In this document: in pieces, positions 4,422 to 14,794 of the stretch
Position numbering within the stretch: position 1 is the first letter of the stretch
Layout: every line of letters starts with the position of its first letter
Assembly: GCA_002313635.1 (NCBI GenBank)
Contig: DCBY01000012.1
Span: 7,859 to 71,858, forward strand
Source of the DNA: Fusobacteriia bacterium UBA1095
Lineage (GTDB): Bacteria > Fusobacteriota > Fusobacteriia > Bac17 > UBA816
Reading direction: 5' to 3'
Length of the DNA: 64,000 nucleotides
Translations under genes and position numbers: made by a program
Notes under the pieces: generated by a model
What the model was told of the DNA's origin: nothing
Databases searched by the model: none
The model's input: only the letters and a program-made list of their open reading frames with translations

Positions 4422-5240
4422 CTAAACAGAGGATACCTCATGCTTTTTCCACTTCATACCAATTCGGCCTAAATAATCTGTAAGAGGAGCATACTCAAAT
4501 ACCTGACTAACATCAATTTTGGCATTTTTGTAAATTTCAATTAAGTTTCTAGCTAACATCACTAATCTGTTATCTACTATTAGCTTAGCCAACTTATCAT
4601 TGTCAAGCCACTCTTTTTTCAGGTAATCCTCACCTTTATAACTTAAAATCAAGTCAAAAGGGCCTTTCATATTTTCTGAATCCCAGTATTCCAGGCAAAA
4701 AATCTTTTCTACCATATCATTCTCTAAAAACTCAGACCTGCCTCTATTCTCTTCGAATAGATATTCAAGACTTTCATAAATATCAGCTTCAACTGCATGG
4801 TAATCAAAATATATCTTTTTCTTGCCTTTTTCTACCTTAAAGCAAGTTTTTAATAGTAACTTGAACTCTTCATTAGAAATACTTCCTAATGCCTCAAAAC
4901 TAGCTTTAATAAAGTTAATGGACTTATACAGAAAAGCTACCTTCAAGCACTTAATAAAAATCTCTCTTTTTTTATCTTCATCACCGGAAGAAGCTCCAAT
5001 AATAGCTTGTACGAACTTAGATATGACATCTTTTTTGTCCCAAATAGCTATTATATCTAAAAGGGTATCCCCATCATACTCTTCTTTTATTAACCTATCT
5101 AAGTCTGAATACTCTAAACTATCTAAAAAGCTAAAATCATCCTCTAATGCATTTTCAACAAAGTGCTCATTTAAAATTTTTTCTTTAGCACTAAAGTCAA
5201 ATTTGCTACATCCAAAAGTTAAAAAACAAAACAGAATCAT
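4422..5240 (-). CDS. Family B lipoprotein (272 aa), solo copy
   Basis: Lipobox FGCS. Paralogous to 5432-6262 and 12324-13196 through shared motifs DFSFLD, DLDRLI, DTL.DIIA.WD, FLYKSINFIKASFE, EEFKLLL, VEKGK.KI.FDY, VEADIYESLEYLF, LEYWDS, KLAKLIV..RLV.LARNL. Confidence 0.8.
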   Translation of the reverse strand: MILFCFLTFGCSKFDFSAKEKILNEHFVENALEDDFSFLDSLEYSDLDRLIKEEYDGDTLLDIIAIWDKKDVISKFVQAIIGASSGDEDKKREIFIKCLKVAFLYKSINFIKASFEALGSISNEEFKLLLKTCFKVEKGKKKIYFDYHAVEADIYESLEYLFEENRGRSEFLENDMVEKIFCLEYWDSENMKGPFDLILSYKGEDYLKKEWLDNDKLAKLIVDNRLVMLARNLIEIYKNAKIDVSQVFEYAPLTDYLGRIGMKWKKHEVSSV

Positions 5241-5431
5241 ATTCTCTCCTAAATTAGTCTTATCGACAAGGAAGTTAATTTTTATTACTACTAATATAAT
5301 ACCATTATTTATGCAATTTGTAATAGTATCATATGCATATTATATATTTCTATAAAAGGATGTTTAAGAAAAAGGGAAACTAATTGAAGTTTCCCTTTGA
5401 TATGTATTATTTTGCTAATCAAGTTCCAAAT

Positions 5432-6262
5432 TTAAACTACAGAAATCTTAATCTGTTTTTTTAAGCCAATCCTAGTTAGGTATCTTGCAAGCTTTTCATT
5501 TTGAAGTACCTTATCAACATTAATTTTAGAGCTCTTCTGGATATTAAGCAAATTTCTAGCAAGAATAACTAACCTTTTCTCTACTATTAGCTCAGCTAAC
5601 TTATCACTATCAATCCACTTTTCTTTCAGATATTCCTCACCCTTATATTCTATGATCATATCCAAAAATCCTTTTTTAGTATCTGAATCCCAATATTCTA
5701 AATAAAGTATCTTCTCTACTATCTCATCGCTTACAAGGTCTTTTTTCTTTTTGTTTTTATCCTTGTTAAACAACAATTGAAGACTTTCATAAATATCAGC
5801 TTCAACTGTACGGTAGTCAAAGTGTATCTTCTGTCTTCCTTTCTCTACTCTTAAGCAGTTGTCTAGCAATAACTTAAATTCGTCATCAGAAATCTCATCT
5901 ACCTTATCAAGGATAGATTTAATAAGATTAACAGACTTGTATAGAAAAGCTTTCTCTAGGCACTCCATGAAAATTGCTCTTTTCTTGTCTTCCTCCTTAG
6001 ATGAAGCTTTATCCAAAGTCTCCACAAAATGGGATACAGTATCTTCATAGTCCCAAGTAGCAATAATATCCACTAAGGTGTCCTCTTCATCGTTTTCATC
6101 CTTTTCCTGTATCAACCTATCAAGATCTTCACTTTCCACATCATCTAGAAAATCAAATTCATCTTCTGTTGCTTTTTCAATAAAGTCTTTTTGTAAAGAT
6201 TTTTCCTTAGTACTAAGTTCTGGACTTTCACAGCCAATAGTTAAAAGATAAAATAAAATCAT
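5432..6262 (-). CDS. Family B lipoprotein (276 aa), downstream member of a C->B cassette
   Basis: Lipobox IGCE. Same motif set as the other family B members. Lies 15 nt downstream of the family C gene on the same strand. Confidence 0.8.
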   Translation of the reverse strand: MILFYLLTIGCESPELSTKEKSLQKDFIEKATEDEFDFLDDVESEDLDRLIQEKDENDEEDTLVDIIATWDYEDTVSHFVETLDKASSKEEDKKRAIFMECLEKAFLYKSVNLIKSILDKVDEISDDEFKLLLDNCLRVEKGRQKIHFDYRTVEADIYESLQLLFNKDKNKKKKDLVSDEIVEKILYLEYWDSDTKKGFLDMIIEYKGEEYLKEKWIDSDKLAELIVEKRLVILARNLLNIQKSSKINVDKVLQNEKLARYLTRIGLKKQIKISVV

Positions 6263-6277
6263 TGCTCCTCCTATTTA

Positions 6278-12226: not shown

Positions 12227-12323
12227 AAATTCTAATTTGTTTCTTCTCTAATAAAGAAATTACACAGGAACCTAAATTTTTTAATACATGGATATAATCT
12301 CCATCCATTTTTCTATCTGATCA

Positions 12324-13196
12324 TTAAGCTTCAGGTATGTTTAACTTATATCCTATCCTAGTTAAATAATCTTTCAATTCAGGATGCTCAATTGCTTTTT
12401 TAACATCCACATCCGAGCTTGTATGGAAATCAATTAAGTTCCCTCCTAAGATAACCAGTCTTTTCTCTACTATCAATTTGGCCAATCTATCATTATTGAT
12501 CCAATGTTCTTGCAAATACTCTTTACCCTTGCAAGTTAATATAAGGTCTAAAGGTCCTTGACAGCTTCCTGGTTTTTCATATTCTAAGCAGAGAATTTGC
12601 TTCACTATCTCATCACTTATTAGACTTGCCTTCTCTTTATTTTTCTCAAAAAGGTACTCAAGAGCCTCATAGATATCACCTTCTATCATATGGTACACAA
12701 AATGTACTTTCTCTTTGCCTTCTTCCACTCTTAAGCAATTATGCAAAAGTGATTCAAACTCCTCATTAGAAAGACTTTTCACCACTTCAAAGCTAGCCCT
12801 GATAAAGTTAATGGATTTGTGCAAGCACGCTTTCTTTAAGCACTCAATGAATATTTTCCTTTTCTTATTTGAGGCCGCCCTCCTGATTTTCTCATCTATT
12901 CTATCGTAAAATCCATCTATATCTATTCTGTTAACAGCTCTATTTATGCTTTCAATAAATTTCGATACTACCTCATTATCATCCCAAGTAGCGATCACAT
13001 CTATAAGAGTATCACCGCTATCGTCACCTTCATACTCTTCCTCAATTAACCTATCTAAATCTGAATAATCTACCTTGTCTAGGAAACTAAAGTCGTTAGT
13101 TATTGCTTTATCAATAAAATCTTTCTTTAAAGACTTCTCCTTAATATTAATATTAGTTCCGCTACACGCAACAGTTAACAAATAAATAAAAATCAT
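12324..13196 (-). CDS. Family B lipoprotein (290 aa), downstream member of the second C->B cassette
   Basis: Lipobox VACS. Motif set shared with the other two family B ORFs. 17 nt downstream of the family C gene. Confidence 0.8.
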   Translation of the reverse strand: MIFIYLLTVACSGTNINIKEKSLKKDFIDKAITNDFSFLDKVDYSDLDRLIEEEYEGDDSGDTLIDVIATWDDNEVVSKFIESINRAVNRIDIDGFYDRIDEKIRRAASNKKRKIFIECLKKACLHKSINFIRASFEVVKSLSNEEFESLLHNCLRVEEGKEKVHFVYHMIEGDIYEALEYLFEKNKEKASLISDEIVKQILCLEYEKPGSCQGPLDLILTCKGKEYLQEHWINNDRLAKLIVEKRLVILGGNLIDFHTSSDVDVKKAIEHPELKDYLTRIGYKLNIPEA

Positions 13197-13213
13197 TTTT
13201 CCTCCTAATTGAT

Positions 13214-14794
13214 CTACTCTCTGGTAGATAGCAAAGGTTCTAATACTTTGTTCATCTCTCCTATAATACCATTCATCCGACTGTTTAGGTCAAGTTTTTC
13301 GTCTAAAATATTTAGTTGATGACGTAACTTGTCCAGAGAGCTTTCTATAAGCTCCATCTTTTTAGCAAAATTAATAAACCTTTTCCCTATAACTTCTTTA
13401 CTATTTTTAATTTCTAAATTCTTGTTTAAAGAACGCATTTCACTTGCTAACTGACGCTGAACAATATCAGCAGCATCATTCAGTGAACCAACTATATTCT
13501 TGGTATCTGACAACTTATCTGTTTTCTTAATGCCACTTTCAAATTTTTCTATTCTCTTTCTAAGCAGGGATTCTCTCTTTTGTAAAGCTGTAATTATATC
13601 TGAATAAAATTGATCTTTCATTTTTGGAAAATCTACTCTATCTAACCAGTGGCATTTCATTTCAACTTCAGTAATGTATCTCAATGAAGTTGTTATCATT
13701 TTTTCTTCTTCCTCTCCAGCTTTAAGTGATCTCAATATATTGTTAGCAAAGCTGGATCCCAACTGTGTAAAACCTGGCTTTACTCCTATTGTTGACAGGG
13801 CAACCAAATCCCCTGATAGTCCCAAGGCCTTAACAAAAATGAATAGCGAGGTAACTCCAATTTTCTTCAGTAAAGAGAGGATCTTTTTCTCTCTTTCTAA
13901 ACCATTACCTAAAAATAGAAATACTTCAACAACTTCCTTATTTTGCTTAAATGCAGCTACCAACATGGCATTAAAATTATCTTTATAATCAACTTCGGCT
14001 CCCTTTGTTAGTAACCCCTCACAATAATGAGCTCCCTCTTTCTTATCCATAGATGCTTGAATTAAAGGAGTTACACCTCTATCATTTACGAAATTTAGCA
14101 TATCAATTGGTAATTTATCGAAATGACTAACCCCACTAAAAAGGGAGATAATCTCATCAAATATACCTCTTCTGCCTCTCTTCACAACATAAAGCATTAT
14201 GTTATCACCATCAATATTAAGTCTTTTTCTACCTAAATCAGGGTACCAACTTAACAATTGTGATACAAAGCTACTACCACCATCTATTAGAAGTGAAAGC
14301 GGTGAATACCCTTCATCATTGATGGCAGTAAGTTCTTTAACTACAACCTCATCAACATCATTGAAATATTTCTTTAAATTACTCTCTTCGTGCTTTTCCA
14401 AGTCAGTACAATCAACTTTATTTTCCAAATAAGAAAGCCTGTCACGGGGAATAATAGAATCAAAAAATATTTTTCTATTCAATCTGGCAGCATAGTGAAA
14501 ACAGTTACTATTGAACTTATCTTTTAAGGATAGCTCTTTTACAAAATCGCTTTCATACTTTAATGATGTTACTCTACTAATTGAAATTTGATTATTCATA
14601 TCCAAAGCTATCATAGTAAGGCTTCTGTAATTAGGGTCCTCTATCTGAGATTTGTCACCCAAAATAGATAAATCTAACCTGCCTTGAGGGTCATTCAATC
14701 CCCTCTCTACGGCTTTAACTTCTATCTTGTTATTGATTTTGAATCTATTTTGATGACAAGAAAACAGAAGGCAGAGATAAAAAATAGCTAGCAT
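13214..14794 (-). CDS. Family C lipoprotein (526 aa), paralog of 6278-7849
   Basis: Signal LLFSCH. Extensive collinear similarity to the 523-aa protein, including ANK-like segments and a coiled-coil C-terminus. Confidence 0.8.
   Translation of the reverse strand: MLAIFYLCLLFSCHQNRFKINNKIEVKAVERGLNDPQGRLDLSILGDKSQIEDPNYRSLTMIALDMNNQISISRVTSLKYESDFVKELSLKDKFNSNCFHYAARLNRKIFFDSIIPRDRLSYLENKVDCTDLEKHEESNLKKYFNDVDEVVVKELTAINDEGYSPLSLLIDGGSSFVSQLLSWYPDLGRKRLNIDGDNIMLYVVKRGRRGIFDEIISLFSGVSHFDKLPIDMLNFVNDRGVTPLIQASMDKKEGAHYCEGLLTKGAEVDYKDNFNAMLVAAFKQNKEVVEVFLFLGNGLEREKKILSLLKKIGVTSLFIFVKALGLSGDLVALSTIGVKPGFTQLGSSFANNILRSLKAGEEEEKMITTSLRYITEVEMKCHWLDRVDFPKMKDQFYSDIITALQKRESLLRKRIEKFESGIKKTDKLSDTKNIVGSLNDAADIVQRQLASEMRSLNKNLEIKNSKEVIGKRFINFAKKMELIESSLDKLRHQLNILDEKLDLNSRMNGIIGEMNKVLEPLLSTRE

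Follow-up and report, generated by a model that had tools for sequence, protein, structure and literature searches.

We analysed a 64,000-nucleotide (nt) stretch of DNA from the metagenome-assembled genome (MAG) Fusobacteriia bacterium UBA1095 (assembly GCA_002313635.1, contig DCBY01000012.1, positions 7,859 to 71,858 of the forward strand). This whole stretch is called the window, and window positions are counted from its first letter. It carries two copies of a two-gene cassette in which a gene for an ankyrin-like protein with a helical tail (C) is followed by a gene for a protein that opens with an all-alpha domain of no sequence family (B). This cassette recurs as the unit of a gene family that, as far as we have seen, is limited to one uncultured marine bacterium; it has been copied whole at least five or six times, is ancient, and invariably keeps the order and spacing of its two genes. 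With a probability of roughly 45%, we read C and the B-domain protein as a co-expressed pair of envelope-anchored, protein-binding scaffolds that are probably host-directed, a function that we infer.

The C and B genes of the window all lie on the minus strand and are listed here with their spacers and the hairpins that follow them.

C1, 6278-7849, minus strand: 523 residues; NCBI protein HCB63854.1
C2, 13214-14794, minus strand: 526 residues; paralogue of C1; NCBI protein HCB63858.1
B1, 5432-6262, minus strand: 276 residues; stand-alone B domain, acidic (isoelectric point 4.75); leader ends at Cys11
B2, 12324-13196, minus strand: 290 residues; stand-alone B domain with an 18-residue insertion; NCBI protein HCB63857.1
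B3, 4422-5240, minus strand: 272 residues; stand-alone B domain with its own Shine-Dalgarno sequence and promoter-like site
C1-B1 spacer, 6263-6277, minus strand: 15 nt, with an AGGAGG Shine-Dalgarno sequence inside
C2-B2 spacer, 13197-13213, minus strand: 17 nt, with AGGAGG inside
Terminator-like hairpin with T-run, 5371-5398, minus strand: directly 3' of B1, at the end of the C1-B1 transcription unit
GC-rich hairpin, 12198-12219: between the convergent B2 and an AAA-ATPase-like gene; terminator-like on both strands

A preliminary description of this DNA had reported a duplicated, divergent cassette with C 15-17 nt upstream of B. The open reading frames (ORFs) lie exactly where it placed them, on that strand and in that order, and the duplication is borne out by the identities between copies: C1 and C2 share 44% identity along their whole length (E 1e-150), and B1-B3 are 49-54% identical (B1/B2 49%, E 1e-94; B1/B3 54%, E 1e-101). 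A profile search of all window ORFs returned no additional members of either family in the window. The start codons are secure, since no other in-frame start lies upstream and a Shine-Dalgarno sequence stands at each ATG. In both C-B spacers the AGGAGG lies 5-6 nt 5' of the ATG, and the C1-B1 spacer with this element fits co-transcription and coupled translation. B3 comes after B1 and has no C gene directly upstream. Because the hairpins follow B1 and B2, and no terminator-like hairpin was found 3' of C1 or C2, the transcription units are probably C1-B1, B3 alone and C2-B2; promoter-like matches are present 5' of each unit, yet their frequency is not above that in shuffled sequence. Between the two cassettes, a single plus-strand gene at 10337-11953 encodes an AAA-ATPase_like domain (PF09820, 158 bits) together with a PD-(D/E)XK nuclease domain (PDDEXK_9).

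Further copies were found in the same genome. When a C1/C2 profile was run in an exhaustive HMMER search against 1.84 billion representative proteins, there were four specific matches: a fragment of C1, a fragment of C2, P0022 (578 residues, E 1e-68) and P0033 (298 residues, E 2.5e-8). The remaining matches were generic ankyrin proteins that aligned at profile positions ~235-310 only, and this search found no C family member outside this genome. The extra C and B-domain genes bear DEP20_ locus tags, and thus belong to the same MAG. In all of these further copies the B domain is fused to an ankyrin array (B::ANK).

C3t (P0033), L006:1930-2826, ~7.7 kb beyond the left end of the window: truncated C comprising the last ankyrin repeat, hairpin and tail; followed after 9 nt by a 975-residue B::ANK gene (B4), the first ~275 residues of which are B domain and the rest a long canonical ankyrin array
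C4 (P0022, start corrected), L007:6939-8729 (contig MDTD01015983.1): 596 residues, same leader; followed 20 nt on by a 1072-residue B::ANK gene (B5)
C5, L007:15092-16789: fifth C gene; followed 16 nt on by a B::ANK gene (B6) of >640 residues that runs off the locus
B7::ANK, C-terminal 451 residues at 13-1368 of the window, plus strand: protein of 1196 residues whose N-terminal ~290 residues, outside the window at L006:6288-7187, are B domain; just 5' of it lies the decayed 3' remnant of a C gene (35% identical to C5 across 83 codons, tblastn E 4e-11)

Each of the five C genes (5/5) has a gene opening with a B domain 9-20 nt downstream, in the same orientation and with GGAGG in the spacer. The seven B-domain genes divide into five that follow a C gene, one that follows the C remnant and one (B3) that follows B1. 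Adjacency is kept even in pairs in which C is only 21-32% identical to C1 and B ~37% identical to B1, all of them within one genome. The identity matrices of the two families correspond, (C1,C2) with (B1,B2,B3), (C3t,C5) with (B4,B6,B7), and C4 with B5, indicating that cassettes were copied as whole units. The stand-alone B1-B3 stop precisely at the end of the B domain in the B::ANK fusions. Very long ankyrin-array proteins carry the B domain as their N-terminal head, and B1-B3 form a subclade without the array. The earlier description of family B as a 'small lipoprotein' is too narrow: B1-B3 stand alone, and in the four further genes it is a head domain.

C and B proteins begin with the same kind of leader, which reads M-[IL], 8-11 hydrophobic residues, a small residue and Cys, and is followed by a loose motif (x3-4-[NFL][FL]xx[KR]xK). 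It is common to at least 18 proteins of unrelated families, the Cys being invariant at positions 10-17. Its carriers include C, B, family A ankyrin proteins (1504-4236 and 8246-10120), a 'D' family on L007, a 622-residue outer-membrane-like protein (51094-52962) and the protein at 28972-30516. In hhalign and jackhmmer comparisons, similarity between leader-bearing families was limited to the first 45-75 residues. The same leader on otherwise unrelated families suggests a common export signal, probably for lipidation, and together with the post-Cys motif it may be a lineage-specific export or sorting signal. C1 (LISC) and C4 (LMSC) fit the lipobox [LVI][ASTVI][GAS]C. Judged from sequence, the leader Cys probably serves as a lipid anchor, within what is not a textbook lipoprotein signal.

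Several leader-bearing neighbours were considered as relatives of C and B. For the family A heads, a second gene pair and a 792-residue ORF, homology was rejected, as the hhalign similarity lay in the leader region only. The second pair consists of 30518-31819 (minus strand; 433 residues, classical lipobox, coiled-coil C-terminus) and, after 1 nt, 28972-30516 (minus strand; 514 residues, leader-bearing, weak Ank_2 match of 30.6 bits). The 792-residue ORF at 22191-24569 (plus strand) has no family match; a leader-type MFLIIIALLNSC begins at its residue 21, so the true start is probably an internal ATG. The 'D' family (L007:2384-3925, minus strand, and 13689-14765, plus strand) combines a weak Ank_2 match, a Gly/Ala-rich segment and a helical tail, carries the leader on the first copy and not on the second, and may be distantly related to the middle portion of C (hhalign probability 72%, E 3.5e-5). 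The family A proteins are as follows.

Ankyrin-array protein with family A head, 1504-4236, minus strand: 910 residues; leader type and post-Cys motif as in C and B; same gene island
Ankyrin-array protein with family A head, 8246-10120, plus strand: 624 residues; same leader type; divergent from C1

C1 is made up of a leader to Cys13, a degenerate ankyrin region (~50-310), a Gly/Ala-rich hydrophobic hairpin (~315-350) and a helical tail (~360-523). Against the Ank_2 cut-off of 27.3 bits (PF12796), C1 (31.0) and C4 (30.4) scored above and C2 (27.1) and C5 (27.0) just below, with the match restricted to the last two or three repeats (residues ~235-305). From this ankyrin sequence signal and the stacked helix-turn-helix units in its model, the N-terminal domain of C is predicted to have an ankyrin fold. 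The segment after it, of ~40 residues, is Gly/Ala/Ser-rich and moderately hydrophobic, with conserved Lys and Asp residues inside (Kyte-Doolittle maximum, 19-residue window: C1 1.38, C2 1.65). Five long predicted helices form the tail, which is alignable across all five copies and has marginal profile matches to designed antiparallel coiled coils and apolipoprotein A-IV.

B1-B3 had no Pfam match at E up to 1, and a hidden Markov model (HMM) of this organism's own ankyrin repeats matched none of B1-B7. In PDB sequence searches the B profiles had no match, and the C profiles returned ankyrin and generic coiled-coil noise only. B is modelled as all-alpha and only generically alpha-solenoid-like, without a sequence family. 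Searches of C and B against Pfam, NCBIfam and PADLOC returned no catalytic or toxin domain; PADLOC gave weak matches over the ankyrin part of C (best E 5.5e-06, C2 to PDC-M72A; others E 0.0025 or worse). On these models both proteins appear to be non-enzymatic helical-repeat scaffolds of the ankyrin/HEAT type, and so a variant of a known protein class. In the Pfam and NCBIfam searches neither family matched a characterised housekeeping domain; the preliminary description had recognised no characterised domain in either. That the families are undescribed stands in so far as C is restricted to this genome and B has no sequence family, and has to be qualified in that both appear to belong to the ankyrin/HEAT-type scaffold class.

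The C and B proteins were constant in sequence: each recurs unchanged on ~93-137 contigs, which come from several sources. The rest of the clusters consisted of fragments, alternative starts and the single-residue variants V183G and S168A (B3), K53R (B1) and D270E (C2). Two other ENA assemblies, whose samples may be shared with the source of the window, are 100% identical to it over 15,240 bp and 4,316 bp. Between paralogues, nucleotide identity is 63-73% and in coding blocks only, and no near-identical recombination tracts, flanking inverted or invertible repeats, or homopolymer switches were found at them. Nonsynonymous divergence (dN) was 0.31-0.45 against a proportion of synonymous differences (pS) of 0.62-0.77; with pS near saturation this is a weak test that shows only that dN is not elevated. 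The values of dN below pS, together with intact, unchanged ORFs on ~100 contigs, indicate that the genes are maintained and not decaying, and B1-B3 appear still to be under purifying selection. Chimeric B proteins occur on short ENA contigs of 1.1-1.7 kb (P0004, P0005 and P0015, the last joining the N-terminal half of B3 to the C-terminal half of B1); they are assembly artefacts or rare recombinants, and are most simply explained as artefacts.

The C and B sequences are also present in Tara Oceans, ENA, JGI and Logan assemblies, and the organism is widespread in the Tara Oceans data; contigs of this MAG recur in the Tara assembly records MDTC01, MDTD01 and MDTG01. The window, with a G+C content of 30-38%, encodes several very long ankyrin-array proteins and the following marker gene.

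TLC ATP/ADP transporter, 40887-42353, minus strand: full length, Pfam 447 bits

TLC ATP/ADP transporters are a hallmark of bacteria that draw ATP from a host cell; together with the abundance of ankyrin proteins, this one suggests that the bacterium is probably host-dependent. Among GTDB species representatives, a scan with the C alignment gave no match and a scan with LigA matched unrelated phyla only (38-44% identity), so that the organism and its close relatives are either absent there or out of reach of the pattern search. Word-index homologue searches returned the query genes, fragments and chimeras only, a weak negative given that the tool missed C2 and the B::ANK fusions. A JGI metagenome scan with the B alignment, an insensitive pattern scan, gave no match. 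C was thus searched exhaustively, and B by the word-index search and this one pattern scan, both insensitive, without a relative being found elsewhere. We found no literature on this organism.

The fixed gene unit, shared leader, scaffold folds, ankyrin arrays and host-dependence marker together suggest that C is co-produced with the B-domain protein and that the two pair in one compartment. In the mechanism we propose, the two genes would share a transcript and be translated as neighbouring cistrons with little space between them. The common short leader ending in Cys, which probably anchors the products to lipid, would then export both, and they would encounter each other in one compartment of the envelope and function as a pair. 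Docking to C would be the task of the conserved head, the B domain, and the long ankyrin array present on most B copies would bind the real targets, most plausibly eukaryotic host proteins. Lipidation, compartment, C:B binding and host targets are each steps that we infer.

Several observations weigh against this reading. The leaders have no Lys/Arg n-region and no basic residue before the Cys, unlike classical signal peptides. The lipobox deviates at -3 or -2 in C2 (LFSC) and is non-canonical in B1-B3 (TIGC, TVAC and TFGC). Neither Lgt nor LspA genes lie within the window, and no search aimed at them was made elsewhere. The structure model of C has a mean confidence (pLDDT) of 48, with hairpin and tail poorly modelled. 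The case for host dependence consists of one marker gene and the ankyrin expansion, and the taxonomic label 'Fusobacteria bacterium' is the NCBI name of the MAG only. All copies lie in one genome, where adjacency may have been inherited through duplication and not selected. Finally, an ankyrin protein that an intracellular bacterium exports through Sec may reside in the periplasm, as in the case of RARP-1 of Rickettsia, which was long presumed to be secreted and was then shown to be periplasmic with bacterial partners (bioRxiv 10.1101/2022.02.23.481736).

The RARP-1 precedent leads to the main rival explanation, that C and B are periplasmic or envelope housekeeping scaffolds that organise the bacterium's own envelope proteins without host contact. 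The leader is of Sec/lipoprotein type, unlike the signals for type III or type IV secretion, and the absence of sequence variation across populations is what housekeeping components would show. Against it, the family (as searched with C) is absent from all other bacteria among the 1.84 billion representative proteins, and repeated amplification with fusion to ankyrin arrays of up to ~900 residues is unusual for housekeeping proteins and typical of host-interaction repertoires. Truncated and decayed copies also sit poorly with an envelope housekeeping role. We regard this explanation as somewhat unlikely.

Confinement of all copies to one genome would also suit a second explanation, in which adjacency is a relic of segment duplication and C and B act independently. 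Partners can evidently be lost, as B3 and the 1196-residue B::ANK protein have no intact C partner and C3 is truncated. However, order, orientation, the 9-20 nt spacing and the Shine-Dalgarno sequence have been kept with all five C genes, although synonymous sites are at or near saturation (as tested for C1/C2 and B1-B3) and the protein identity of the other C copies to C1/C2 is only 21-35%. The trees of the two families are moreover congruent, and we consider a relic unlikely.

An extended form of the paired-scaffold reading would make C and the B-headed ankyrin proteins a previously unknown two-component system for surface display or delivery. The hairpin and tail of C would act as membrane anchor or conduit, B would load the arrays onto C, the leader with its post-Cys motif would be a new surface-export signal for lipoproteins, and the marine lineage using it would parasitise eukaryotic cells for ATP. 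The preliminary description had likewise raised a two-component surface system; in this full form we hold it to be decidedly unlikely.

A toxin-immunity-like module, in which the hairpin and amphipathic helices of C would be membrane-active (pore-forming), B the cognate protector and C3 an 'orphan' C-terminal module, could account for the tight coupling of the downstream gene to C, the joint divergence of cognate pairs, and the fact that C3t retains only the last ankyrin repeat, hairpin and tail and still precedes a B-domain gene. The marginal matches of the tail to apolipoprotein A-IV and antiparallel coiled coils point the same way, but the structural matches of the tail stem from a low-confidence model. 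Neither a toxin domain (Pfam, NCBIfam and PADLOC) nor the unrelated C-terminal tips of polymorphic toxins were found, the C tails being homologous in all copies and not polymorphic. The hairpin is only weakly hydrophobic (Kyte-Doolittle 1.2-1.65) with its conserved Lys/Asp, and B has an export leader of its own and in most copies is joined to huge ankyrin arrays. We judge such a module very improbable.

The idea of an antigenically variable or rapidly diversifying surface repertoire, put forward in the preliminary description, could draw on the number and divergence of the paralogues, which are putative exported proteins whose conserved blocks are joined by variable linkers, and on the few chimeric contigs such as P0015, but it is largely refuted and scarcely tenable given the constancy of the proteins across contigs and assemblies, the divergence of the paralogues at the DNA level, the lack of any excess of replacements, and the finding of neither locus variation nor recombination, invertible or slippage elements of the vls/vmp, vsp/vlp or pilS type.

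Elsewhere in the window, dnaA, dciA (PF05258, called in L008), gyrB and gyrA stand in a row at 52974-59062 (minus strand). Since this row adjoins a sign change in GC skew near 60 kb, the replication origin is probably at ~59-60 kb, with yidC and mnmE divergent from it. A tRNA-Leu(TAA) followed by three tandem tRNA-Met(CAT) occupies 42460-42817 (plus strand), and a tRNA-Gln is found at 61992-62066 (plus strand), close to the window's right end. On L007, a photolyase/cryptochrome-like gene, judged by eye to be split into two ORFs (12220-13029 and 13116-13613, both minus strand), may be a pseudogene. Some 4.7-8.2 kb past the right end of the window (L008:16578-20088), ~14 tandem same-strand ORFs of 54-100 residues without Pfam match follow a Peptidase_C11 gene.

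The closest known kind of system is the expanded ankyrin repertoire of host-associated bacteria. As in those repertoires, there are many lineage-specific paralogues, copies have been gained, truncated and lost, no enzymatic domain is present, and the TLC transporter marks host dependence. In contrast to them, C and B have leaders of Sec/lipoprotein type in place of type IV or type I secretion signals, carry no F-box, U-box or other eukaryote-like partner domains, and form a two-gene cassette whose second gene opens with a B head without sequence relatives. Other known systems share particular features. In Borrelia, cp32 and related plasmids carry repeated cassettes of paralogous lipoproteins (Mlp, Erp/OspEF) along with coiled-coil Bdr proteins. 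The C-B units resemble these as multi-gene units repeated in one genome that combine putative lipoproteins with coiled-coil proteins; drawing on general knowledge of the Borrelia cassettes, they differ in being chromosomal near the origin and not on prophage-like plasmids, in having no known sequence similarity to them, in their ankyrin/alpha-solenoid folds and in the absence of population variation. Chlamydial Inc proteins have a bilobed, uncharged hydrophobic domain of at least 40 residues and a type III secretion signal. From general knowledge again, C is similar in its central ~40-residue hydrophobic hairpin flanked by helical or coiled-coil regions and in belonging to a bacterium that probably lives inside hosts. 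The C hairpin, however, is too weakly hydrophobic and retains conserved charges, so that no such Inc-type domain was found in C, which also has a cleavable-type Cys leader and an ankyrin domain before the hairpin. Neither a TPS domain nor an Omp85-type transporter, as in two-partner secretion (TpsA/TpsB), is present in C and B, both of which are all-alpha. RARP-1 likewise is an ankyrin protein that carries an N-terminal export signal and comes from a host-dependent bacterium, but it is a single conserved gene with no amplified cassette or paired partner gene, and is not predicted to be lipidated (bioRxiv 10.1101/2022.02.23.481736).

New here are the conserved pairing of two genes, the orphan head domain B and the unusual leader. 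If a C:B complex does form, it would give a host-dependent bacterium a new means of mounting ankyrin arrays on its envelope, through lipid-anchored partners and not through type III or type IV injection. In that case the B domain, and likewise the leader plus post-Cys motif, would serve as useful markers for such proteins in other uncultured marine symbionts, and the host-interaction repertoire of this organism would bear on who parasitises whom in the plankton.

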